Assembly: GCA_027263115.1 (NCBI GenBank)
Contig: GCA_027263115.1_3656.1
Strand: one strand, 5' to 3'
Source: a phage
Length of the DNA: 64,000 nucleotides
The translations under genes and the position numbers were made by a program. Of the stretch, positions 1,503 through 62,133 are shown piece after piece; position 1 is the first letter of the stretch; the number at the start of each line of letters is the position of its first letter. The notes beneath the pieces were generated by a model. That model was not told the DNA's origin and ran no database searches. It saw only the letters and a list, made by a program, of their open reading frames with translations.

Positions 1503-1973
1503 TTACTCCGGTTCAGGATCTGGGTAATCTTCAATAATAAAGGGCCATCCGTTCCGCTTAGCCTCAGACTTATACTCGATCTCCTTCATTGCAAACTCTA
1601 ACTGATTCTTAGCCGGAATACATGCCGGAGAATCATCAATCCAGATATCTGGGTAGATATCAAACTGCGCCAGATAGGCTGCCTTCTGAACACCACCAGT
1701 ATAAAACACACCAACATTGAGCTCCTTGCGCCAATACTCGATGTCTACATTGTCTTGAGTAATGAATCGGAAAGTCACAAGGTAGACTGTCCACCCCTCT
1801 TTCTTCAGATCCCTGATCAGGCGGGAGAAGATGAAAGGGCTCGCATTAAACGTTCCATCAAAGTCAATGGCGATGATGTGCGTGCCGTGGCGAGTCTCAT
1901 ATGGATTGCTTGTGGTAAGATTGCTGTAGTTAAAAGGGACCTCTTCCCCGCAGTAGCTGTAGTCCATATTCAC
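1503..1973 (-). CDS. HAD-superfamily hydrolase, possible nucleotidase
   Basis: IAIDFDGT near N-terminus matches HAD motif I (DxDGT); 156 aa. Confidence 0.55.
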   Translation of the reverse strand: MNMDYSYCGEEVPFNYSNLTTSNPYETRHGTHIIAIDFDGTFNASPFIFSRLIRDLKKEGWTVYLVTFRFITQDNVDIEYWRKELNVGVFYTGGVQKAAYLAQFDIYPDIWIDDSPACIPAKNQLEFAMKEIEYKSEAKRNGWPFIIEDYPDPEPE

Positions 1974-2245
1974 ACCTTCTCGTTGATAAATTTACGGGCG
2001 GTTTGGTGAGTTGTTTCTGCTGTCTTCAGAATGATATTAATTTTATCGTCAAGATCATTCATCTCAGCAGTTAATTCAGGAATCTCTCCGGCATGCATGG
2101 TGAAATCATACATAGACATGCCCAGGATCTCATTGATGCGGCGGTTGCATTCTGCAGCACGCTGGTTCATTTTCCAAGCTAACACCAAAGCCTCCTGCGT
2201 AGCCTCTAGTGCAAAATCTAATACGTCGGCCTCTTCTTTCGTCAT
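1970..2245 (-). CDS. hypothetical protein
   Basis: 91-aa ORF, stop/start overlap with neighbour. Confidence 0.45.
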   Translation of the reverse strand: MTKEEADVLDFALEATQEALVLAWKMNQRAAECNRRINEILGMSMYDFTMHAGEIPELTAEMNDLDDKINIILKTAETTHQTARKFINEKV

Positions 2246-9730: not shown

Positions 9731-10914
9731 TGTCAAGAAACGTATTTGAAAGTGGTCAAATCACTGTCCGTGAGTTGCCAGCTATCATTCAGTTTGCCCA
9801 GCGTCATAACCGATCTGTCCTGATTTTAGGACCAATGGGTGTGGGAAAGAGTCAGGTGATGAAGCAGATCGCTGATAATATGTTCGGTGAGCGAGATGAC
9901 AACCTGGTTGACGTGCGGCTGTCAGATAAAGATCCTGCCGACTTATCTGGGCTACCTATCCCTGTAGAAGCGGATGGGACTACACGTACAGTGTTTGCAA
10001 TCCCAGAATTTTGGCCTGCGGATCCTGACTGGAGCGGAATTGTCTTTCTGGATGAGCTCACTCATGCAGATAACTACCTGCAAAAGGTTGCAATGCAGAT
10101 TATGCTCGACCACAAGTGCGGCACCTATGCATTCCCTAAGGGCTCTGTTTTTGTAGCTGCAGGTAACCGTTCTACAGATGGTGCTGTTCTTTCGGCGCTC
10201 GAAGCCCCTCTGGCTAACCGCTTTATCATTGTAGAAGTTACAAGCAACGCAGAGGTGTTTATTGAGGACTACGCATTCCTTAATGGGGTGCACTCCTCTG
10301 TAATTGGATATCTGAAAAGAGTTCCATCAGCTATTGATAATTATGAGGCCATGGCTGAGATTAATTGTCCATCTTTTGCCACACCGCGATCTTGGGTTGC
10401 TGCATCTGATATCTTGCACGATTTTGACAGCGGTATTATTTCTGACGCTATGGCCCGTGTTCTTCTACAAGGTGCTATTGGTCACACTGCAGCGGTAGAG
10501 ATCTGGACTTACCACACCAAGAAACGCAACTTACCGGAAATCGGTCGGATTATGGCAGGAGGTTGCAAAGAATACGTAGGCCCTAAACAGCCAGACATCT
10601 TGTGGATTCTTGGATCTGAAGGTTGTATCGCTATTCGTAATATGATGGAAAATGCAAGTATCTCCGACGAAGATCTTGTTAGCTGTGTGGCAAACTTCCT
10701 CGATTTCCTTTGGGAAAACTTCAAGGACGAGAACCGAGATTTTGTATTCTCAGTCTTTATGGCGATGATGAAACCTAATGCCTTAGGAAATGCCTTGCTT
10801 ATCGGTAAAGGTCGTGACAAGATTGTTGCTCAGCTGATCAAAGCATACCCAAACCTGATGAAGATTGTAAAAGAGTTTGGTGAAGAGTTTAGCGCCATTT
10901 TGGCTAAAGCTTAA
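9730..10914 (+). CDS. MoxR-like AAA+ ATPase (AAA_5 type)
   Basis: Walker A LILGPMGVGKS, Walker B IVFLDEL, and sensor region VFVAAGN typical of MoxR/CbbQ ATPases. Confidence 0.8.
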   Translation: MSRNVFESGQITVRELPAIIQFAQRHNRSVLILGPMGVGKSQVMKQIADNMFGERDDNLVDVRLSDKDPADLSGLPIPVEADGTTRTVFAIPEFWPADPDWSGIVFLDELTHADNYLQKVAMQIMLDHKCGTYAFPKGSVFVAAGNRSTDGAVLSALEAPLANRFIIVEVTSNAEVFIEDYAFLNGVHSSVIGYLKRVPSAIDNYEAMAEINCPSFATPRSWVAASDILHDFDSGIISDAMARVLLQGAIGHTAAVEIWTYHTKKRNLPEIGRIMAGGCKEYVGPKQPDILWILGSEGCIAIRNMMENASISDEDLVSCVANFLDFLWENFKDENRDFVFSVFMAMMKPNALGNALLIGKGRDKIVAQLIKAYPNLMKIVKEFGEEFSAILAKA

Positions 10915-10923
10915 GGAGGTTGT

Positions 10924-11304
10924 ATGGCTAAAGTAGGTAAGCGGGGAAACTACCTGGTGGTATTGACCGAGGAGCCGGAGAAGGAGTACGAATGCAGCTC
11001 CACTTGCGTGATCGATATCCGAGAAAAAGATGTAGATGAAATCTGGTTTAAAATATTGGACGCTTGCGATAGCAGTGATTATTTCTTCATCTATGTCAAC
11101 GATAAGGCTGGGTTCTTCCATGACGACGGAGAGTTGCCGTATGAAATCTATGAACTTGTAGAGGCTTGCCATCGTGGAGATGCGGAGTTGTTTGGCTTAC
11201 GGCTGAAAAGCGGTAAATTCTTCTATCAAGATGAGTGCATGAATCTTCATAACTTTGTAGAGGGAACTTGCAACGATGGAGAGATTTTGGCACACTACGA
11301 TTAA
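10924..11304 (+). CDS. hypothetical protein
   Basis: 126-aa ORF with AAGGAGG RBS. Confidence 0.5.
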   Translation: MAKVGKRGNYLVVLTEEPEKEYECSSTCVIDIREKDVDEIWFKILDACDSSDYFFIYVNDKAGFFHDDGELPYEIYELVEACHRGDAELFGLRLKSGKFFYQDECMNLHNFVEGTCNDGEILAHYD

Positions 11305-51561: not shown

Positions 51562-51849
51562 TCATAGTGCCTCTAAGATTTCATATCCTTCGGGTCGGAA
51601 TACAAGCCACTCCGTGGCTCCGTTTGGTCGATACGCTTTATACAGAACAACCTGGTCTCGGCACATGCACATGGCTACATAGTTTTCATCCACACCTGCA
51701 GCCTGCATTGCATCTTCTTCTCCGGCAACTGCTTTGCTTACAACTTCCTTGGTAGGCAGGTGTGCGATCAGCTCGTCACCATCATTAATTCCAAAATGGC
51801 TGAGTTCGCCGTTGGTATCTTTAATCTTAATCTTAACCAGATCTTTCAT
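51562..51849 (-). CDS. small acidic protein (possible distant member of the MKVK family)
   Basis: 95-aa ORF, ATGA overlap. Confidence 0.5.
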   Translation of the reverse strand: MKDLVKIKIKDTNGELSHFGINDGDELIAHLPTKEVVSKAVAGEEDAMQAAGVDENYVAMCMCRDQVVLYKAYRPNGATEWLVFRPEGYEILEAL

Positions 51850-52178
51850 TAGTCTTCCCCCAGGTTCAAAGGTCCTAAGATTTCATATGCCAGATTAGAA
51901 GTTACAAGAGGGTCTTCTGCGTCTTTAGTATTATACCACCCGTGAATAACCAGAGTCCCACTTTGTTTCATGTCCAACTGGAACTCTTCTGCCGTTTCCT
52001 CATCCAGCTCCAAGATTTCCATAAGGTATTTGATGTTAGGGAGGTATGCAGCTGTTACAGTCCCCTCTACCAGACCTTCAGGCCAACCTACATCTGGATG
52101 ACAAGTAGGAACCAGGTTGGTCAGCTTAATGGTGTACGCTTTTTCTGCACGAGCCTTCAGTAACGGGTCAATCTTCAT
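51849..52178 (-). CDS. small acidic protein
   Basis: 109-aa ORF, ATGA overlap. Confidence 0.5.
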   Translation of the reverse strand: MKIDPLLKARAEKAYTIKLTNLVPTCHPDVGWPEGLVEGTVTAAYLPNIKYLMEILELDEETAEEFQLDMKQSGTLVIHGWYNTKDAEDPLVTSNLAYEILGPLNLGED

Positions 52179-52528
52179 TATTCGTCCTCCTCTTCGGTAC
52201 CTGCTTCCAGTAATAAGTTAAGAATATCTTCTGCACAAGGTTCATAGAACTCTTGGCCTTCATTATCGATGATTTTGTAGTCATCTCCACGAATAATCAG
52301 GGGATCACTCTCAAAATTATCGAGACCTTTAACAACGACAACACGATCGATTGCCATCATTGTAAGAACTTTATCGACATCTTCCTCTGCTACACCATAC
52401 TGCAGCAGAATGTCTTTGGTAGGAGGAACAGCATCCACCACAACGCCGTTACCAAAACCTTCTGGAAGTTTAGCTAAAATATCTTCCGGAACCACATTCA
52501 CATCAAAACCGGTAATTTCTACTTTCAT
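52178..52528 (-). CDS. small acidic protein (MKVE start, family-like)
   Basis: 116-aa ORF, acidic C-terminus. Confidence 0.5.
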   Translation of the reverse strand: MKVEITGFDVNVVPEDILAKLPEGFGNGVVVDAVPPTKDILLQYGVAEEDVDKVLTMMAIDRVVVVKGLDNFESDPLIIRGDDYKIIDNEGQEFYEPCAEDILNLLLEAGTEEEDE

Positions 52529-52789
52529 TTACAGCACCTCTTCGTCAACTACTTCATAAAAATGGCCTGGGATTGCAATAGCGTTCTCACCTTCACCTAC
52601 AAACACAGTTCCGTCAAGAATCAACATCATAAGAATTTCTGTAATATCCTCTTCCGGAACGTTGCCAAAACCTTTAATCAGCTCGTAGGTTGGAATATTT
52701 ACCTCTAAGATGTCACCATCTTTAGAACGGAAATCAACACCGTCCTGAATCTCTGCCGTTTCAAGGTTTTTCAATTTAATCTTCATCAA
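52529..52789 (-). CDS. small acidic protein (MKIK start, family-like)
   Basis: 86-aa ORF ending ...VVDEEVL. Confidence 0.5.
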   Translation of the reverse strand: MMKIKLKNLETAEIQDGVDFRSKDGDILEVNIPTYELIKGFGNVPEEDITEILMMLILDGTVFVGEGENAIAIPGHFYEVVDEEVL

Positions 52790-52865
52790 TCGGTCCCCTG
52801 TCTTGTTAAGATGAAGGTATTATTTCACACAGGGTTGGCGTTGTCAACACCTGTGTGCAAGAAAA

Positions 52866-53261
52866 TTACTGAAACAGTGCGGATAAATTACCTTCTGGTG
52901 GGAACTTATCTGCCAAAAACGGTGTTAGCACAGTAGCCTTCTGAAGATCTGGGGTCCACTCGTTGTTCAGAACATCCCAGTAGTACGCAATGTTGCTGTG
53001 TGGGTGCCGCATTACGAACTTTTTCCCTTCGTAGTCATCTGAAACCTCTACAGAAGAAATAACAACAGAATCTTCAAGGGTTTCTTCATAGAAAGATCCA
53101 CCTTCAAATTTCCAACGAGATGCAAGAGCCCCTGCCTTGAACGCTGCAGATAACGGACTGTCGGCAAGAACATACATTTCTTGCACTCTGTCGCTGCGAT
53201 CTTTGCTTCTTACGTTGTATACAGTATCTGAGCTATACTCAACACGGTATAGGCTTACCAT
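52866..53261 (-). CDS. hypothetical protein, paralog of 55068-55466
   Basis: RHPHSNIAYYWDVLNNEWTP vs HPDSRVKHYWNARTKTWTP in the paralog. Confidence 0.55.
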   Translation of the reverse strand: MVSLYRVEYSSDTVYNVRSKDRSDRVQEMYVLADSPLSAAFKAGALASRWKFEGGSFYEETLEDSVVISSVEVSDDYEGKKFVMRHPHSNIAYYWDVLNNEWTPDLQKATVLTPFLADKFPPEGNLSALFQ

Positions 53262-53620
53262 TACCGCACCTCCTCAATAACTTCCACATCTGAACCTACC
53301 ACAAATGCAAAAGGACAGGTTTCATGAAAGATATCCGGATCGCCGCCAAGCTTGCTAACAATTTCTCCACCACTAATAAACACAAGCTCACCGATATTCA
53401 TCAGATTGCTGAAATAGTACCCATAATGATTAAAGAATGCAGCAGGGTCAGGTAGACTAGTAGCCTCAAGCACTACATCGGTTGAGGTTACTTTCTTATC
53501 ATAACCTCTCGCCTTTTGAGATGCAAGATCTGCAGAATCCTCAGGCGACCGGAGATGCATAGGAATTGTTTCACCAATAAAGCGTACTTTCATATTATCA
53601 CCCAACAACCATAGCTTCAA
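53261..53620 (-). CDS. small acidic protein, MKVK family
   Basis: likely starts at internal MKVRFIGE; ends ...DVEVIEEVR. Confidence 0.5.
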   Translation of the reverse strand: MKLWLLGDNMKVRFIGETIPMHLRSPEDSADLASQKARGYDKKVTSTDVVLEATSLPDPAAFFNHYGYYFSNLMNIGELVFISGGEIVSKLGGDPDIFHETCPFAFVVGSDVEVIEEVR

Positions 53621-53861
53621 AAGGAGTCATGAACGAATAAACGGCATCATCATCTGCTTCAGGGAATGCTCCCAAAGACTTCATATCTGAGCCCTTGACA
53701 AATACAAGGTTTTGATCAAAGGCTTCTTGGGGGTCAATCCGATACATATTTCGTAAAATATCGCTTACCTCCTCATCAAGAGGTGAGTATGCTGTGCACG
53801 TTTTTCCGATCAAGCTTTGAGAATCAGGGTATCCACCTGAAGTTTTAAAATAAACAATCAT
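53598..53861 (-). CDS. small acidic protein, MKVK family
   Basis: GYPDSQSLIGK...VFVKGSDMKSLGA resembles the 59276 and 55479 members. Confidence 0.5.
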   Translation of the reverse strand: MIVYFKTSGGYPDSQSLIGKTCTAYSPLDEEVSDILRNMYRIDPQEAFDQNLVFVKGSDMKSLGAFPEADDDAVYSFMTPFEAMVVG

Positions 53862-53952
53862 ATAGTATCACCTCTGGTAAGAGATTGGGACTCCTTTCCC
53901 ACAAATAATTACAAATCTTCCTTAGCGAGGAAGTATGCTAATCCAAGCAGGA

Positions 53953-54222
53953 TTATTCCTCTACAATCTCATACACATCAGGAGTTACAATCAACTCTTC
54001 TCCGTTACCCGGTGCAACAAACACCACCAAACCTTCAGGTGTGTGCTTTTTAGCCATCTCGATAACATCTTCTCGCAGAGCTGGCTCCATCAGATCAAAA
54101 CCTTCACCTAGGGCATCACGAACCACCTTCATATAGTCCACTGGTTGTGCTTCAACAATCATGCCTTCAACCAGTCCACAATTTTTGTCTGCCAGCTCAG
54201 TTTGGAATAATTTAATTTTCAT
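53953..54222 (-). CDS. small acidic protein (MKIK start, family-like)
   Basis: 89-aa ORF ending ...YEIVEE. Confidence 0.55.
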   Translation of the reverse strand: MKIKLFQTELADKNCGLVEGMIVEAQPVDYMKVVRDALGEGFDLMEPALREDVIEMAKKHTPEGLVVFVAPGNGEELIVTPDVYEIVEE

Positions 54223-54248
54223 TTAGAGGTCTCCTCAATTATTTGATA

Positions 54249-54350
54249 TTAATAGCCGTAACCTAACACATTAACTACAACTGCGATTGCAAACATAATT
54301 TCAAAGCATGCAATCTCTACACTTGGGACTAATTTCTTAATCACGCCCAT
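54249..54350 (-). CDS. small hydrophobic peptide (33 aa)
   Basis: ATG after GAGGTG; hydrophobic core. Confidence 0.35.
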   Translation of the reverse strand: MGVIKKLVPSVEIACFEIMFAIAVVVNVLGYGY

Positions 54351-54359
54351 TGTAGCACC

Positions 54360-54677
54360 TCATTCTCCAAAGTCAATCTTTACTTTTCCTTTCCCTTTAC
54401 CTTTCTTTCCACCGCATTTAGCCAGCTGACGTGCTGCAACATCTACCATACGGTCAGTTGCCTCGTAAGCATCACTGCCTTTAGCTTTGGCAATAACTTC
54501 TTTTCCAGAAGTGTCAAAAATGAACGCCATAACTTCCTGGTGATCATTTTCAACTTTTACACTTACACGTGCATGATTTACAGAAGGATGTAGACGCTCC
54601 AGTTTTGACATTTTGTGGGAAATGAAAGACACCATACCTTCGGTGATTTCTACGTTGCCAGTAATCTCAATTTGCAT
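54360..54677 (-). CDS. ribosome hibernation factor, RaiA/HPF (YfiA) family
   Basis: MQIEITGNVEITEGM...KLERL...V.VKVE...A.GSDAYEA.D...D...RQLAK aligns with E. coli HPF/RaiA as recalled; Lys/Gly-rich tail. Confidence 0.8.
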   Translation of the reverse strand: MQIEITGNVEITEGMVSFISHKMSKLERLHPSVNHARVSVKVENDHQEVMAFIFDTSGKEVIAKAKGSDAYEATDRMVDVAARQLAKCGGKKGKGKGKVKIDFGE

Positions 54678-54759
54678 AACGTGTTCCTTTTAAAGAAGAG
54701 AGAATAACTCTCTCTTTGAAAACAATAATACTATAACTGAAGCGTTGTGTCAACAGTTT

Positions 54760-55050
54760 TTACAGATTGTTGTCGATAGTATTTAAAATATCTACAGCAA
54801 GATCTGCCATTTTTCGAACATACTCTGCAAACTCAACAGGATCCTTGATCAAAGAATTCACAGGGTCGTACCCTAGAGCGTTTAAAATGGCTGCAGCATC
54901 TACAACCTTCTCATCATTTGCGAAGATCTCTCCGTCAAACTTGTAGGTCCATTTTGAGTCAACCTTAGCAGAGCAGGGTTTGTCCATGCTTGTTACACCA
55001 TCGTCTTTAAACTCTCCTGCGTTATCAATATTTAGAATTAAATCCATCAT
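54760..55050 (-). CDS. hypothetical protein
   Basis: 96-aa ORF. Confidence 0.55.
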   Translation of the reverse strand: MMDLILNIDNAGEFKDDGVTSMDKPCSAKVDSKWTYKFDGEIFANDEKVVDAAAILNALGYDPVNSLIKDPVEFAEYVRKMADLAVDILNTIDNNL

Positions 55051-55067
55051 GGTGACACCTCACTGTT

Positions 55068-55466
55068 TCAGTTTAGCTTTTCTTCAACAACCCCATAACT
55101 TGGGGCAGAGTCAAGAGCTTTCTGGTTTAAAAGTGGCGTAGCAGAATCTGCAAACGGTGTCCAAGTTTTTGTTCTGGCATTCCAGTAATGCTTCACTCTG
55201 GAATCTGGATGCACTATAACAAAAACTTTTTCACTTGTCAACACATTAATTTCTTCTACACCCTTGCTGATAATTTCTCCGTCATAGCCCCCAGTCTGGT
55301 ATCCTTCGTACCAGGTTCTTGCATAGGCATAGCCAGCCTGCCAGCATGCAGCCTCCTCCGAGGTGGAGACTACGTAGAAGTCTTTCTCAAATTCTGGAAT
55401 ACGCCCTTGCTTTACGCTCCAAGCCCCGCGAATTTTCATTGTAACTTTAAACAGTTTATTTTTCAC
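55068..55466 (-). CDS. hypothetical protein, paralog of 52866-53261
   Basis: 132-aa ORF; see paralog. Confidence 0.55.
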   Translation of the reverse strand: MKNKLFKVTMKIRGAWSVKQGRIPEFEKDFYVVSTSEEAACWQAGYAYARTWYEGYQTGGYDGEIISKGVEEINVLTSEKVFVIVHPDSRVKHYWNARTKTWTPFADSATPLLNQKALDSAPSYGVVEEKLN

Positions 55467-55478
55467 AACGGTTACCCA

Positions 55479-55733
55479 TCACAGCTCTACAATATCTGCA
55501 TCTGACCCTACCCCAAAGGCATAGTAGGACTCTTCCCCGAAATAATATTCAGGTGCACCAGCGGTGATCAGGTCTGATCCCAAGATAAACACCACGTTGT
55601 GGCCTACATAACTGTGATGTTGCCGCACAGGATCATCCCACGGCAACCCTTCAAAGTATACCGCAGGAACGACCTTTCCATTCAGGAAGGATTGTCCCAA
55701 GTAGACGTTAGAATCAAGAATTTTAACCTTCAT
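55479..55733 (-). CDS. small acidic protein, MKVK family
   Basis: MKVKILDSNVYLGQ...LITAGAPEYYFGEE. Confidence 0.55.
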   Translation of the reverse strand: MKVKILDSNVYLGQSFLNGKVVPAVYFEGLPWDDPVRQHHSYVGHNVVFILGSDLITAGAPEYYFGEESYYAFGVGSDADIVEL

Positions 55734-55950
55734 GATCGTCCTCCACTACCTCTACATCCTCACCTAGGGCAAAGTTATAGGTCCACTGACTGTCAAAGCA
55801 TTCCTGAGATGCACCAGCGGCAATAAGATCTGCTCCTTTTATTTTTAAAAGGTCAGGGTAATCTTCGTTAGGGACAGCAGTAAACACTTTTCCTACTAAA
55901 GGCTCCTGACCAATATAGAAGCTTGAATCTAAAACTTTAACTTTCATCAA
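55723..55950 (-). CDS. small acidic protein, MKVK family
   Basis: MKVKVLDSSFYIGQ...LIAAGASQECFD. Confidence 0.5.
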   Translation of the reverse strand: MMKVKVLDSSFYIGQEPLVGKVFTAVPNEDYPDLLKIKGADLIAAGASQECFDSQWTYNFALGEDVEVVEDDHEG

Positions 55951-56234
55951 CGGTCTCCATCAGGTGGTTGTGGGACGTAAACACTGTTACGAATATCGTC
56001 AGCAGTGTAGTAATAAGTGGTTCCAACCCTGTCTCGGGCTGCAATGTACTCTGCTATACCAATAAGTGCCATTGATTTGGTGGCGTATCTTCCCAACTCG
56101 TTAGCTCCCCAGTAGAATTTAGACCAGTAGGGAATAAGACCGAACAAATATACCTTTTGACGAACTTCCCAGTAAGTGCCTTTTCCGACAAGTTTAAACT
56201 CTACTTCACTACTGTTAATCTTTTTCATTATCAA
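55947..56234 (-). CDS. hypothetical protein
   Basis: 95-aa ORF, ATGA overlap. Confidence 0.5.
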   Translation of the reverse strand: MIMKKINSSEVEFKLVGKGTYWEVRQKVYLFGLIPYWSKFYWGANELGRYATKSMALIGIAEYIAARDRVGTTYYYTADDIRNSVYVPQPPDGDR

Positions 56235-56527
56235 TCTCCCTCTACCGTGGTCGGATTGTCAGTAAGAAATTGAGCATTGGCTGGAGGCACGCCTGACATT
56301 TTCCACACAACCATAAGTTTGTAACCAGGCACTCTATTAAGTGCAGATCGAGTAGAGTTTGTGCACGTATACTTTCGCTTTCCAAACCCGTTCTCCATCA
56401 TAATCCAGTACCCAGTATCTTTGTCACCAGGTATCGGTAGACCACCTTCATCAACCCACTGAATGGACCACGGCACGATGGCTACAGCTTTATATTTAAA
56501 CTTTTTAAACCACTCAAAAAGTTTCAT
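56231..56527 (-). CDS. hypothetical protein
   Basis: 98-aa ORF, ATGA overlap. Confidence 0.5.
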   Translation of the reverse strand: MKLFEWFKKFKYKAVAIVPWSIQWVDEGGLPIPGDKDTGYWIMMENGFGKRKYTCTNSTRSALNRVPGYKLMVVWKMSGVPPANAQFLTDNPTTVEGD

Positions 56528-56712
56528 AATTCAGCCTCGCTTGGCAACTCTTCTACCTTAACATGCCGAAAAGTGTTACCGTAATGGTTGATCCATGACA
56601 TCAGCTCGCTTTCTTGCTCTTCCTCTGGGATGAACTCTCGAATGCTGACAAGTTTTAAGAAAACCCAATCACAATCTGCACCCATTCTACCAGACAGGCA
56701 ATAGTGCTTCAT
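56524..56712 (-). CDS. hypothetical protein
   Basis: 62-aa ORF. Confidence 0.45.
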   Translation of the reverse strand: MKHYCLSGRMGADCDWVFLKLVSIREFIPEEEQESELMSWINHYGNTFRHVKVEELPSEAEL

Positions 56713-56730
56713 AAAACCCTCCTGCCTGGT

Positions 56731-56925
56731 TTAGAATATTGCTTCTTCCATTGCGCCTGAGAGCAACAAAGAGGTGATCTGGCTAACATTCATCTCAGAC
56801 TCTACTTCCTCCCCTTTGAAAGGTTCGCGGCAGAATAGGACTGTTTCAGGACTTTTACTTCGAACAATATAATACAAATCATTCAATGTGTTGTAGTAAT
56901 AAGTGTTAAAACGTAAGTTTTTCAT
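56731..56925 (-). CDS. hypothetical protein
   Basis: 64-aa ORF. Confidence 0.45.
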   Translation of the reverse strand: MKNLRFNTYYYNTLNDLYYIVRSKSPETVLFCREPFKGEEVESEMNVSQITSLLLSGAMEEAIF

Positions 56926-57209
56926 TTTCTAGTCCTCTTCTTAGATTTTTGGGGAGAAACGCTTTCTGCAATACGAGACAGACGTTCTTCTGAAGCCTTA
57001 CCTACTCCAGGTTTTTTGAGTGGATTATCTTTATGACCACAATCCAACTGGATATTGGATACCTCTCCAACTTTGTAAGTCAATTCTAGCAAAAGGTTGT
57101 CGTCCTTGTCAAATGTTTTTACGATAAATTTTTTATCGTTCTCCTGAACTTCATATCTGGTACCTGCAGTATACAGCATGGTGCCATCAGCATAGGATAT
57201 CCAGATCAT
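56922..57209 (-). CDS. hypothetical protein
   Basis: 95-aa ORF, basic C-terminus. Confidence 0.5.
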   Translation of the reverse strand: MIWISYADGTMLYTAGTRYEVQENDKKFIVKTFDKDDNLLLELTYKVGEVSNIQLDCGHKDNPLKKPGVGKASEERLSRIAESVSPQKSKKRTRK

Positions 57210-57553
57210 TGAGCCTCCTTTTGCTGCAACAGCATTAACTCTTTGTTAGAGATCTTTACTGCTGTTTTTATTGTTCCATCTTCACGAAACCACGACCAGA
57301 ACTCTACAGTGTCACCACTATCAAGTAAAGCATGCCCATGGTAAAAATCTTTGTCCTTAGACAGTTTCTCATCTATATCTGCATCAACACATTCGTGATC
57401 CATAGCATTTTGCCTGAACGCATCGGTTATGCCAATGCACGCCTTGCTCTCAAGACTGGTATATCCGATATCTTTTAATTCAGTTTCCCAAGTCCAGTAC
57501 CCTATAAAAGCTAAAACAGCTACCCACAGTAATAACGTTTTAATCTTTGGCAT
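57206..57553 (-). CDS. hypothetical protein with N-terminal signal or TM segment
   Basis: MPKIKTLLLWVAVLAFIGYWTW hydrophobic N-terminus. Confidence 0.5.
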   Translation of the reverse strand: MPKIKTLLLWVAVLAFIGYWTWETELKDIGYTSLESKACIGITDAFRQNAMDHECVDADIDEKLSKDKDFYHGHALLDSGDTVEFWSWFREDGTIKTAVKISNKELMLLQQKEAQ

Positions 57554-57615
57554 TCTCTCTACCTCTTTCTTAGTTTATTTCACTATGGCACATCCTTTGT
57601 GCCATATCTCAACTA

Positions 57616-58086
57616 CTACTTAAATAGTAGTTCAAAATAGTGCAAAATTAACAGAAGTTGAACTACACCTAGTGCAACGGCGAGTATGTTAATCTTAGAA
57701 TCGAAAAACTTCTTAACTTTTACTCTAAAAGGTTCCTTAATGTCCTTTACGATCCTATCTATAGATGACCTCATATCTCTGATTACCATCCTGAACATTA
57801 AAGACGGATGCTCCCCCATCTCTGTAACGGAATCGAAAACATACTCTCTTCGGTCATAAGGGCCGCCAGCTCTGCGTATTAACCTCTCCACAGAGACCTC
57901 GAACGTCACACCTGTAACGTAATCATCTATAACAAGTCGTGACGGGTCTTTACCTTTACTATCAAGAGGTATCAAAGTTATCTTTCCAGATTTTGTTAAA
58001 ATTTCCCCTTTTTCAAGCAAGGTGTACCAATGCTCTCTGCCAAGACTGTTGAGGCACGTTTTTACATATTTAACAAACATCGTCAC
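57616..58086 (-). CDS. hypothetical protein with C-terminal TM segment
   Basis: 156-aa ORF; C-terminal LAVALGVVQLLLILHYF. Confidence 0.5.
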   Translation of the reverse strand: MTMFVKYVKTCLNSLGREHWYTLLEKGEILTKSGKITLIPLDSKGKDPSRLVIDDYVTGVTFEVSVERLIRRAGGPYDRREYVFDSVTEMGEHPSLMFRMVIRDMRSSIDRIVKDIKEPFRVKVKKFFDSKINILAVALGVVQLLLILHYFELLFK

Positions 58087-58286
58087 CCCTCATCGCACGT
58101 CTGATATAACCACTCTATAAAATCTTGATACCATTCGCCCTCTGAGCGCTCCGTAGGCCAATAATCTTCACCCTCTCGTGCATTAAAATCTGAGTATTCA
58201 ACTTTCCACTCCTTTACCAGCTCGTGGAGAAGGTTTTCAGCCTGCTCTAAAGATTTATTTTTTACCATTGCTGTCTCCTTTTTCAA
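58083..58286 (-). CDS. hypothetical protein
   Basis: 67-aa ORF, ATGA overlap. Confidence 0.45.
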   Translation of the reverse strand: MKKETAMVKNKSLEQAENLLHELVKEWKVEYSDFNAREGEDYWPTERSEGEWYQDFIEWLYQTCDEG

Positions 58287-58487
58287 GATAGTTATACATC
58301 AGAACTGCACCACCTAAGATGGCTACCAGTAACAATATCCCAGATAGCATCTCAATAAACATGGCTTGAAACACTGGAAGGTCTCCCTAAATTAACGCAC
58401 CATTTTAAATACATGCTCTTTTCCCATAAAGGTGCCTGGCTAAGATCTGCGTAGAACGCAATCTCTTTAAGAACAGTATAGATAGTT

Positions 58488-58715
58488 TTAGGTGCGGTCT
58501 CCATCCCTACTCTCCTTCCTGATATTCTTGTAGTAATCAACTAGGCACATTATTACGATGAAGATAACAACAGGCCAAAAAGGTGCAGCAGTGATGATGG
58601 TGATAAAATCATCAAACTTCACCCTTCGTCTGGACACGATGCATACACCTGTCAAGAATACCGCTGTTATAACGGACATTACCAGGTAACCTATTAGCAC
58701 AACATTTATACTCAT
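58488..58715 (-). CDS. hypothetical membrane protein
   Basis: two hydrophobic helices. Confidence 0.5.
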   Translation of the reverse strand: MSINVVLIGYLVMSVITAVFLTGVCIVSRRRVKFDDFITIITAAPFWPVVIFIVIMCLVDYYKNIRKESRDGDRT

Positions 58716-58745
58716 TGGTCCTCCCTTTGTAGGTTAAATTGTATA

Positions 58746-59279
58746 CTACAAATGGTCGCTGAGGGTGTCAAGAAAATTATCCCGTTCTTTCTCAGAGTTT
58801 TCATGTGTGTAGCTGAAAAACATATCGAGAATAACCTTATTGATATATTCCAGCTCCTCTGTGTTCAGATGCTTAGCAGGATCTACAATGACATCCCAAA
58901 TATCATACAGACCACACTCATGATACCCATAACGCCACTCAATTGTCAAGCTGAGCGGCAAATCTTTACCTTCACAAACAACCTTCCATCTACATATGTT
59001 GGTATCTGGTCGTACCTGTGCACGGTACACCTGCACAAAATCCAATTTGAATTTGAGGTACTCGTCATACAATTTAAGCACAAAGCTCTCGATTTGTGGA
59101 GACACTTTTGCAGCAAACTGTGCGTATTTGTACTTGCACTGGATGATCTTTCTGCGTTTTGCAGTTAAATTTTTTGCCGCCAGTTGTTCTTCAGTGTATC
59201 TCCACCTACGATCAACAAACGCAACAGGGTCTTTGTCCCCATAGAGGTCTTCCCAGTTAATCAGAAGCATACCTGTCAC
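58746..59279 (-). CDS. hypothetical protein
   Basis: 177-aa ORF. Confidence 0.55.
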   Translation of the reverse strand: MTGMLLINWEDLYGDKDPVAFVDRRWRYTEEQLAAKNLTAKRRKIIQCKYKYAQFAAKVSPQIESFVLKLYDEYLKFKLDFVQVYRAQVRPDTNICRWKVVCEGKDLPLSLTIEWRYGYHECGLYDIWDVIVDPAKHLNTEELEYINKVILDMFFSYTHENSEKERDNFLDTLSDHL

Positions 59280-59509
59280 TCCTCCACAACTTCAAGGCCT
59301 TTACCGCCTCGCTCTGGCAGATTACTTAAAGATAGGTAATACATATAATCAGGAGAGATCCTGCCAGACTCTGCACCTGCAGCTAGTAAATCCTTCCCTT
59401 TAACCAGGACAACATTCTCGTTTGCAGATAGCCGTTTTGCTTCCACAATTTTACCAACACAGTCAACCAAGGAAGGGTACCCTAAATCTGTAAGAAATTT
59501 AACTTTCAT
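59276..59509 (-). CDS. small acidic protein, MKVK family
   Basis: MKVKFLTDLGYPSLVDCVGK...LLAAGAESG...EVVEE. Confidence 0.55.
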   Translation of the reverse strand: MKVKFLTDLGYPSLVDCVGKIVEAKRLSANENVVLVKGKDLLAAGAESGRISPDYMYYLSLSNLPERGGKGLEVVEE

Positions 59510-59546: not shown

Positions 59547-59945
59547 TTACTGAACAGAGCGCGGTGCTGGGAAGGATAACTCTTCTAAAGAGAAGATTTC
59601 ATTTCCTACCACCCAAGTTGCTGGGTCATCTGGATCAACAGGTTGGATAATCATTACCTCATCCGCCTCGCACACACGTTTCCCACCCATAGTAGCGTCA
59701 GCCACTAACATACGCGGCTCTTCAGAAATGCACAGGTAGCCACCTCGGCCCACTGTTCCTTCCACGGGATCCTGCCCTTTGACCACAATGAATACCTTCT
59801 CTCCTGTGGAGATATTACTTTTCACACTAACAGTTTGACCAACTTTAGATGTACCGATCTTGGTGGCTTCAAACATTAAATCCCGAATTACTGTTGCATA
59901 GTTGCCGGACACTTTCTTACCTTCTTTAGTAATCTCAATCTTCAT
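59547..59945 (-). CDS. hypothetical protein
   Basis: 132-aa ORF. Confidence 0.5.
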   Translation of the reverse strand: MKIEITKEGKKVSGNYATVIRDLMFEATKIGTSKVGQTVSVKSNISTGEKVFIVVKGQDPVEGTVGRGGYLCISEEPRMLVADATMGGKRVCEADEVMIIQPVDPDDPATWVVGNEIFSLEELSFPAPRSVQ

Positions 59946-60217: not shown

Positions 60218-60532
60218 CTACCAGGTTACTGTCAAGTAGGCAACCGTATTATTTTTCTCTGGGGAGATGCCAACAACATCTACCTGCAGACCTCCTGCCC
60301 TTAAATCTCCAACAATGTGCGGGAAGTAATCTGAGAGATGCGAGGGTAGATTTATCGAAAATCCGCACCCCAGAAAGCCTGCTAACGCTTTATTTTGTAT
60401 CTCCCCTACAATCGCATCATAAATGGAGTTAAGCTCGTCAGGGAGCGTTACAGGGCGTTTTAGCGCTAGCTGGTGTAATTTGTCCTTAGCACTCATTTTC
60501 ATTTCAGGTCTACCTCTGGGGGTGCCAACCAC
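60218..60532 (-). CDS. hypothetical protein
   Basis: 104-aa ORF. Confidence 0.5.
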   Translation of the reverse strand: MVGTPRGRPEMKMSAKDKLHQLALKRPVTLPDELNSIYDAIVGEIQNKALAGFLGCGFSINLPSHLSDYFPHIVGDLRAGGLQVDVVGISPEKNNTVAYLTVTW

Positions 60533-61032
60533 ATAAACGGCGGCAAGTCTAAACGGTTTTTCTTATCCCACACAAAATATGCATATGCTTGCCCGTCAGT
60601 TCTGCCGTTTGATTGAAATGATGGACGCTTAGATATTGTGATCACAGTAGTAGGTGCATTATCAAGCCACCATTCAAATCTGGCTTTGCTTTCCAGAAAA
60701 TTAAGACGCAAAAGCATAATAACTACGTCAGCATCTTTCAACGCCTTGTCTACAAACTCACGAGCCAGGCTGTATGGTGGGTTGGTGATAATACAGTCAA
60801 CATGGTTGTATTCTGTATTCAGATAGTCAACACCTTCTTGTATTTCTCCCCATGCAGATCCTAACGGCATACGGGAGTAGAACACACCTGAGGCACTATT
60901 CCTGCAAGGCTCTAAGTAGGTCCAGTCTTCTGGGAACGGAATAAGGTCATACAGCCCTTCTGCACACCACTCCGGTGTCACATACTCATCGTAGGCGTTA
61001 CGTTGTTCATCAGGTTTTCTAGCACAAGTCAT
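60499..61032 (-). CDS. small Dam-like DNA N6-adenine methyltransferase
   Basis: IITNPPY motif IV (NPPY); 177 aa, typical of compact phage Dam-family enzymes. Confidence 0.65.
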   Translation of the reverse strand: MTCARKPDEQRNAYDEYVTPEWCAEGLYDLIPFPEDWTYLEPCRNSASGVFYSRMPLGSAWGEIQEGVDYLNTEYNHVDCIITNPPYSLAREFVDKALKDADVVIMLLRLNFLESKARFEWWLDNAPTTVITISKRPSFQSNGRTDGQAYAYFVWDKKNRLDLPPFMWLAPPEVDLK

Positions 61033-61083: not shown

Positions 61084-62133
61084 TTAAGCTTCTTCGACAA
61101 TTCCTGCACCCAGGATTTTTTCATTGAGCTCTTTTGCTGTTTTAATAATATTGTCCACCAGACGCTTGCGAGTCTTATCTTTCACCTTAACCTCTTCACC
61201 GCCGTTCAGAGTAGTCTTCAATTGAGACAGAATATCCTGAAGTTCAACGACAGAGAATCTCTGCAGATCTTCTGAAGTAATCTCACTCAGGGCAATTCTG
61301 ACGGTCTCGCCACTTTCCATCTGCAGATTCAGGAACACAGTGTGAACATCACCTTTCGAACCACCCGCTTTTGCAGATTCAACAGCATGAACTAACTCAT
61401 CTAAAGATGTGCACTGGTGAATCTCCGGAAGACCTGCTTCACCTAACACGCCTTCTTCATCACCTTTTGCCAGAAGCTTTTTCGGTTTTTGTCCGTTCTG
61501 GATGCGTTGTATGTTGCCTTCATCCAGAATAATAGCTCCAGTGCGTGCTGCCAGCTCTTCTCCGTCCAACCACACTTCGCCACCAGCTGTGATGGATGCG
61601 ATCTCATCTTCTGTCAGCACCCCACCGTAGTATTTTTCGATCAGGCGTTCAAAACGTTTTTTCCAGTAGCTGACCTGAGTATTCATGTTCACACCGTTAC
61701 CATAAGTGCCACCTTGATAGTAGTGGAACATAAACTCTGTGTCCGGAGCCACAGTACGTTCTTTACAACCAAGCCATAAGATTGTTCCAGCAGAGCAGCA
61801 CATCCCTTCAGCATGTGCAACAACGCTTGCCTGAGACTCTCGGAATGCCTGCAGATAAGCCATTGCAATGTGCACGCAACCCCCAGGGCTATTGATGATC
61901 ACCCGAATGCTTTCTTCCGGCTGAGCCATACGGATCGTCTGCAGACGAGACATATGATCTTGTAAGTCTTCCAAATCGTCGATATAAAGAACGTGGTCAA
62001 CAACAGGTGTTGGGTAGCTGTATGTTTCCATGATACCGCCCGGCATACCAAACATTTTATTACTCATAGGTTCGAAACCGTTCTGTTTTTCTTTCATGCC
62101 GTGTACCATGGTGCTGCGAGGTGTTAAATTCAT
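61084..62133 (-). CDS. ClpP-like serine protease (S14/S49 fold)
   Basis: INSPGG, catalytic Ser context GMCCSAG, His in FMFHYYQGG; long C-terminal extension. Confidence 0.7.
   Translation of the reverse strand: MNLTPRSTMVHGMKEKQNGFEPMSNKMFGMPGGIMETYSYPTPVVDHVLYIDDLEDLQDHMSRLQTIRMAQPEESIRVIINSPGGCVHIAMAYLQAFRESQASVVAHAEGMCCSAGTILWLGCKERTVAPDTEFMFHYYQGGTYGNGVNMNTQVSYWKKRFERLIEKYYGGVLTEDEIASITAGGEVWLDGEELAARTGAIILDEGNIQRIQNGQKPKKLLAKGDEEGVLGEAGLPEIHQCTSLDELVHAVESAKAGGSKGDVHTVFLNLQMESGETVRIALSEITSEDLQRFSVVELQDILSQLKTTLNGGEEVKVKDKTRKRLVDNIIKTAKELNEKILGAGIVEEA

Follow-up and report, generated by a model that had tools for sequence, protein, structure and literature searches.

What are the many small proteins encoded between 51.5 and 59.5 kb of the phage contig GCA_027263115.1_3656.1, and how did so many of them come to lie side by side? 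The analysed stretch of this contig (64,000 nucleotides (nt), hereafter the window) derives from an rV5-like Vequintavirus. The region in question (8.1 kb) is 99.5% identical to Escherichia phage Murica; 122 Vequintavirus (rV5-like) records match it with at least 90% identity, and at least 80% of the region is covered in 115 of them. In Murica and rV5 the genes of the region are annotated as 'hypothetical' except for a RaiA/HPF homologue, a methyltransferase and a ClpP-like protease. All genes from approximately 50 to 62 kb are located on the minus strand, and in the region from 51.5 to 59.5 kb we found twelve co-oriented genes that belong to three paralogous families, five in family A, five in family B and two in family Z. 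A search of the rest of the window and of the Murica genome gave no further A, B or Z genes. An antisense open reading frame (ORF) opposite a plus-strand gene block (10783-11172, minus strand) was matched by family A profiles with E-values of 0.03-0.12 and was taken as chance. The anatomy of the locus and its evolutionary history, as laid out below, are very probably correct.

The original prediction, made from the nucleotide sequence, had named five ORFs as members of one family of small acidic proteins, and all five are present on the minus strand; the ORFs are designated here by their first position. Three of them form the core of family A: 59276..59509 (77 amino acids (aa), pI 5.4), 55723..55947 (74 aa from its ATG, the ORF extending to 55950), which is the first gene of an upstream tandem pair, and 55479..55733 (84 aa), the second gene of that pair, which overlaps 55723 by 11 nt and carries a loop insert after strand 2. 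They matched phrog_5009 with E-values of 8.3e-36, 1.8e-38 and 3.7e-32, respectively. The two other members are divergent. 53598..53861 (87 aa), in which strands 2 and 3 are separated by an insert, matched phrog_5009 weakly (1.2e-4) and has a PHROG of its own, phrog_13920; 53261..53593 (110 aa from the ATG, starting with MKVRF, ORF 53261-53620) has two inserts and its own PHROG, phrog_13661, did not match phrog_5009 directly and joins the family via a hidden Markov model (HMM) built on 55723, 55479 and 59276 only. This core-member HMM was searched against the 453 six-frame ORFs of the window and recovered 53598 (E 1.6e-6) and 53261 (E 5.4e-5); the next match had an E-value of 0.04. Both were also recovered by an HMM dominated by distant non-rV5, mostly metagenomic relatives (7.6e-7 and 7.4e-6). 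An all-versus-all BLASTP connected 55479 with 55723 (9.5e-14), 55723 with 59276 (1.7e-6), 53261 with 55479 (3.4e-4) and 53598 with 59276 (0.006). Taken together, the PHROG matches, BLASTP and the core-member HMM show that the five-member family is real. The sequence motif that had been quoted for it holds in the three core members but is degenerate in 53598 and 53261. Family A proteins have 74-110 aa, a pI of 4.1-5.4 and a net charge of -1 to -10, and a conserved GxDLIxAGA helix after strand 3 is a feature of their own.

Neighbouring ORFs had been described as distant members of the same family. This held only in part: 53953, 52529, 52178, 51849 and 51562 were reached by no family A profile (E above 1), and they were dropped as plain family A members. 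Instead, the five proteins align with each other and, judged from their profiles, form a second five-member family, B. This was examined by HMM tests in which one orthologue group at a time was left out, and in every test the omitted member was the top match outside the training set. In the first round the E-values were 1e-3 for 53953, 1e-5 for 52529, 3e-8 for 52178, 0.067 for 51849 and 1e-5 for 51562. After divergent orthologues from the contig L017 had been added in a second round, they were 1.9e-4 for 53953..54222 (89 aa, pI 4.3), 7.4e-7 for 52529..52786 (85 aa), 7.7e-8 for 52178..52528 (116 aa, net charge -21, pI 4.05, with an acidic C-terminal tail), 4.7e-6 for 51849..52178 (109 aa) and 8.5e-7 for 51562..51849 (95 aa), and the best non-family ORF was found at 0.11 or worse. 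The last four genes make up a tightly packed tandem array, which is opened by 52529 (BLASTP to 52178, 0.002) and closed by 51562. With 85-116 aa, a pI of 4.05-4.7 and a net charge of -7 to -21, family B proteins are more strongly acidic than those of family A. Every gene described here matched a PHROG at E-values of 1e-32 to 1e-76, the B genes phrog_11868, phrog_12359, phrog_12155, phrog_12457 and phrog_12794, which are separate families with some cross-hits among them. PHROGs splits 53598, 53261 and the five B genes into single-orthologue families, and the paralogy of five plus five genes is not recorded there. Besides, a 98-aa protein on a 657-nt metagenomic contig (P0123) was found to combine a DUF7399 N-terminus (PF24132, E 2.9e-11) with the C-terminal half of a 51849-type B protein; it arose either by recombination or as an artefact of assembly.

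A duplicated three-gene cassette had been predicted as well, and its mirrored gene order was confirmed: 55723-55479-55068 and 53598-53261-52866 both read A-A-Z. The Z proteins that follow the first and the second A-A pair, 55068..55466 (132 aa, pI 7.8) and 52866..53261 (131 aa), are paralogous, as seen from BLASTP (2.3e-9) and from their common match to phrog_7379 (4.3e-74 and 2.1e-66). The start of 52866 overlaps the stop of 53261, and its product is 39% identical to the orthologue in L002 which, like L017, represents a divergent lineage. Both Z proteins have a conserved C-terminal (Y/H)YW(D/N)x5W, followed by TP in both window copies, which resembles the signature of WW domains. Z homologues are confined to rV5-like phages (8 clusters) and gave no context clue.

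A segmental duplication as the origin of the two blocks is plausible, as it fits the gene order and the Z paralogue that closes each block. It was not demonstrated, for there is no DNA similarity between the blocks beyond the best match, a collinear 23-mer (23 nt), and a neighbour-joining bootstrap tree of the small proteins did not resolve the pairing. 55479 grouped with 53261 in 18% and 55723 with 53598 in 12% of the replicates, the tandem neighbours in 31% and 27%, and all pairings of the four genes stayed below 35%. BLAST placed 55479 nearest to its tandem neighbour 55723 and not to 53261, and in L002/L017 the 132-aa paralogue is absent from the first block. The five A members of rV5 were never monophyletic; support was confined to the orthologue pairs and to one clade uniting 59276, gp40 of phage mEp021 and the protein P0044 (84%). 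Two independent tandem duplications, or gene conversion among neighbouring genes, would thus explain the data as well as a segmental duplication. Since the cassettes share no meaningful DNA similarity, the duplications are ancient.

Structures were predicted with AlphaFold2. The model of 55723, calculated with 15 homologues, had a mean predicted local distance difference test score (pLDDT) of 92.2 and comprised five strands and one short helix. According to this model, family A has an SH3/KOW-like five-strand beta-barrel, with all five antiparallel barrel strands present. The model of 53953 with 22 family B sequences (pLDDT 93.3) had the order strand 1, strand 2, three helices, strand 3, strand 4, strand 5, so that family B is predicted to be a five-strand, probably SH3-like barrel with the strand order of A and three helices inserted after strand 2. 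The inserted helices sit in the loop in which 55479, 53598 and 53261 carry their inserts. A search of BFVD with the family A model gave uncharacterised phage proteins as best matches, including proteins of T4-like phages, with template modelling (TM) scores of up to 0.83, and the BFVD model of the 53598 orthologue from Shigella phage CM1 matched the family A model with a TM score of 0.79. The top match of the family B model was a 95-aa protein of vB_EcoM-ECP32, judging from its length probably the orthologue of 51562. The Pfam model of KOW (PF00467) and the SH3 models (SH3_1, SH3_3 and others) were unmatched by the window members at E-values up to 1 and by 27 distant relatives at E-values up to 0.1. 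The fold is already known, and the families are catalogued but uncharacterised.

Beyond the rV5-like phages family A is rare: a HMMER search of 1.84 billion representative proteins gave only 41 representatives at E ≤1e-3. All 27 distant relatives also matched phrog_5009; related A PHROGs include 13367, 8603 and 7345. Cultured phages that carry the family nearly all belong to Vequintavirus; outside this genus it occurs in temperate phages of the mEp021 group and in a small number of Vibrio and Proteus phages. Homologues of 59276 were found by tblastn in mEp021, mEp013 and mEp554. Some relatives contain the domain in tandem, three copies in P0043 and two each in P0050 and P0072. An uncultured 42-kb phage (L005) has two A copies, one of them between a Prim-Pol primase gene and an AAA_24 gene, and L015 has a two-domain form upstream of genes for a dCMP deaminase and a D5-type primase. 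Family A genes sit in replication or early modules of these unrelated phages. A protein of 1140 aa that matched the A profile (P0042) was judged a repeat-driven false positive, as only DLVIVKGxD words match.

Next to the genes, expression signals were found. A sigma-70-type promoter, TTGACA-17-TATTAT (11/12 consensus), lies upstream of the RaiA gene at 54725..54753 on the minus strand and equals P144 annotated in rV5; it would drive RaiA and then 53953 (B), two A genes and Z. A second one with an extended -10 (TG), again 11/12 consensus, precedes the four-gene B array at 52819..52847 (minus strand) and equals P150 of rV5. Both are located in intergenic gaps. Within the cassettes and within the B array, adjacent genes either touch or share 1-11 nt, which suggests translational coupling. 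The cluster is located downstream, in the direction of transcription, of genes for nucleotide metabolism (ribonucleotide reductase), PhoH, the ClpP-like protease and the DNA methyltransferase. A function as virion component was rejected because mass spectrometry of rV5 virions lists none of these proteins (PMC3606486).

What do the proteins do? We propose that A and B proteins are non-enzymatic binding modules that would be made in the early or middle phase of infection, before late gene expression. A role as non-catalytic binders is suggested because they are predicted to be small single barrels and are without an enzyme signature, acidic, conserved, non-structural and preceded by host-type promoters. 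Each paralogue would bind a different macromolecular target of the host or the phage as a stoichiometric inhibitor or adaptor. Because the A and B proteins are negatively charged, basic nucleic-acid-binding proteins would be the likeliest targets. Neighbouring paralogues, perhaps together with Z, might act as hetero-oligomers, as the genes are packed or overlapping and two- and three-copy fusions occur in other phages. This mechanism is tentative, possible rather than probable; the account that joins it to the anatomy and history of the locus is our best explanation overall and has about an even chance of being correct. Several observations weigh against it. No function was found in databases or the searchable literature, and all matching PHROGs are of 'unknown function'. 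The number of promoters in the region is about two standard deviations above that in shuffled sequence and no more, and early or middle expression is read from promoter consensus and gene position alone, as are the probable hetero-oligomers from gene packing and domain fusions. With a net charge of -1, 59276 is hardly acidic, and its mEp021 homologue is part of a late operon, between the Q antiterminator and the holin (lysis) genes. In favour of a non-enzymatic role, searches of Pfam, NCBIfam, PADLOC and PDB sequences with the members and their alignments gave no credible match, and for ten proteins there was no match to known defence-system proteins in PADLOC-DB at E-values up to 1.

Other explanations of the locus were weighed against these data. 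That the similarity is compositional, or that the ORFs are not real, might be argued from the shortness and acidity of the proteins and from several weak pairwise BLAST E-values (0.002-0.09), but profile E-values go down to 1e-38, the leave-one-out tests ranked the omitted member first every time, orthologues are present in more than 120 genomes, the AlphaFold models are confident, column-shuffled controls stayed below the observed score in a profile-profile comparison of A and B (see below), and the ratio of nonsynonymous to synonymous substitutions (dN/dS) lies far below 1 in all of the genes. The similarity thus goes beyond composition, and a chance origin is next to impossible. The original prediction had suggested an arms race with the host; in this view the family would diversify with fast turnover of copy number and sequence, and a recent segmental duplication would have given the second cassette. 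Indeed, there are many paralogues at one locus, a homologue has moved between virulent rV5-like and temperate mEp021-like phages, and recombination between neighbouring A genes does occur: a 70-aa chimera (P0014), which starts as 55723 and ends as 55479, replaces both genes in L010 (2501-2713) and L011 (2501-2713), contigs from at least two independent samples in which this stretch is equivalent to window positions 55479-55950. It shows unequal recombination at the motif-coding stretch common to both genes, a 30-nt stretch that codes for the GxDLIxAGA of 55479 (55551..55580, minus strand, repeat family D1) and is 80% identical to its partner copy in 55723 (55807..55836, minus strand); P0014 aligns to both genes across a 26-nt overlap at the crossover. 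In addition, the rV5 orthologue of 51562 (L008, 17263-17552) has a 2-nt indel, either a frameshift or a sequencing error, and is annotated as two overlapping short ORFs, 153 and 154, and V18 has its 53598 orthologue entered as a truncated protein of 59 aa. However, dN/dS (Nei-Gojobori, pooled, against rV5 and 10C2) was 0.12-0.13 for family A and 0.08-0.15 for family B, which is indistinguishable from the 0.09-0.11 of neighbouring genes. Of the 122 genomes, 115 have kept at least 80% of the region with identities of 90% or above, and L002/L017 retain all ten A and B genes in order at 39-75% protein identity. As for copy number, the comparison with related phages revealed only one type of variant, the 55723/55479 chimera, and the missing DNA similarity makes the duplication ancient rather than recent. 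The paralogues are under purifying selection, each a stable orthologous lineage. Diversification by an arms race is not supported on the timescale visible here, and as an explanation of the locus it is unlikely.

A further explanation concerns the relation between A and B. Both could belong to one superfamily with a ten-member expansion, in which B arose from an A-type barrel by gaining the three-helix insert and losing the GxDLIxAGA helix. In favour of this, the two models have an identical strand order with the B helices in the insert loop of A, A and B proteins alike begin with an MK(V/I)K strand and close with an acidic end of the YE(I/V)VEE type, and their genes are interleaved at one locus; hhalign gave scores of 21-28 (P 4e-4 to 1e-2), above all 150 column-shuffled controls (maximum 15.5), and at least nine BFVD entries were matched by both models, among them A0A514CYF5, which has a TM score of 0.83 to A and 0.63 to B. 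But the hhalign probability is 4-34%, comes mainly from 27 N-terminal columns and became weaker once more diverse B sequences were added; B members stay out of reach of every family A HMM, the PHROGs of the two families show no cross-hits, and the shared BFVD entries have E-values above 0.5 for B. Further, MKxK starts are common among small phage proteins, and small barrels can arise convergently. We regard a common origin as evenly balanced, and the full derivation of B from an A-type barrel with the ten-member expansion as a reading that falls just short of an even chance. L005 encodes a 63-aa family A relative without the GxDLIxAGA helix segment (1922-2113, minus strand), which could be an intermediate between both architectures. 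A more specific version, in which A and B as one superfamily form tandem or fused hetero-oligomeric decoys for basic host proteins that bind nucleic acids, such as RNA polymerase, nucleoid proteins or defence nucleases, with paralogue-specific targets and Z as the dedicated partner of each A-A pair, is quite improbable. Alternatively, the proteins might be KOW- or Tudor-like barrels that dock on RNA polymerase or the ribosome and redirect them alongside the phage RaiA/HPF. The RaiA/HPF gene does lie between the cassettes under the same promoter, and rV5 was reported to have T4-like late promoter motifs but no homologues of gp33, gp45 and gp55 (PMC3606486), which leaves a gap for late-switch factors. 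On the other hand, the Pfam KOW and SH3 models were unmatched, direct binding of RNA is unlikely for acidic proteins, and other phages that carry family A do not show the link to RaiA. A role in transcription or translation, suggested by the KOW-like fold and the RaiA neighbour, is accordingly a weaker alternative to the binder model, and we consider it unlikely.

The neighbourhood of the families showed some further features. The RaiA/HPF ribosome-hibernation homologue (54360-54677, minus strand, Pfam PF02482, E 4.4e-13), located between both A-A-Z cassettes, has its own consensus sigma-70 promoter and is kept in L002/L017. Just upstream of the cluster and in the same orientation are the genes for the DNA methyltransferase (177 aa, 60499-61032, minus strand) and the ClpP-like protease (349 aa, 61084-62133, minus strand), the latter with a long acidic C-terminal extension. 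The gene at 56731-56925 (minus strand, 64 aa) has only 68-71% nucleotide identity to rV5 and 10C2 (dN 0.28) between flanking genes of 92-99% and looks like a locally replaced or hypervariable allele. Identities of approximately 85% were also found for 59547-59945 (against rV5 and 10C2) and 51849-52178 (against rV5 only). An Rfam scan of 49-63 kb matched no family. Over the region, eighteen 'Campylobacter phage' records (MG065635, MG065653 and others), which give C. jejuni as the host, have 98-99.5% identity with rV5-like phages of E. coli, and their host assignments look doubtful.

In sum, approximately one third of the genes from the ClpP-like protease gene to the end of the transcription unit of rV5-like phages belong to three paralogous families, and ten of them are predicted to encode the same kind of tiny acidic barrel. 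These phages are in wide use in the biocontrol of E. coli O157 and in phage collections. A run of roughly 27 'hypothetical proteins' is thereby reduced to a few testable modules with confident structural models for two families; the genes are conserved and under selection and are therefore not junk. Accessory clusters in which a large virulent phage keeps paralogous genes for small, presumably early proteins are of a familiar general kind, and this conserved locus is a fairly ordinary one. Family A is also found in unrelated phages and E. coli prophages, and if the targets were indeed host defence or the machinery of gene expression, the barrels would represent a new fold class among the proteins that phages use for host takeover or counter-defence.

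How do the proteins compare with known systems? A close relative outside the rV5-like phages, gp40 of mEp021 (with its homologues in mEp013, mEp554 and mEp044 and, as P0031, in E. coli prophages), is 41-49% identical to 59276 over its full length, including the GDKGRGLEVVEG-type C-terminus, and clustered with it in the tree; unlike the rV5 genes it is a single copy in a temperate phage outside any multi-copy early cluster. It is uncharacterised and unmentioned in PMC11893012. SH3-like barrels of known structure, such as the KOW domains of Spt5/NusG (4zn3, 5ohq), PsaE, the C-terminal domain of retroviral integrase and eukaryotic SH3, share 4-25% sequence identity with the window proteins. They differ in that A has its own GxDLIxAGA helix and B a three-helix insert, and in that A and B stand alone as acidic proteins instead of forming part of a larger factor. 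A functional analogy, and no more than that, can be drawn to T7 Gp2, T4 Arn, T7 Ocr and CarS, an SH3-like antirepressor; these are small acidic proteins of phages or bacteria whose charge mimicry lets them bind the nucleic-acid machinery of the host. None of them was matched in sequence or specifically in structure. By this analogy, A and B resemble these proteins in small size, absence of an enzymatic motif, a probably early, non-structural position and the high net negative charge that marks charge mimics, which amounts to -1 to -10 in A and -7 to -21 in B.

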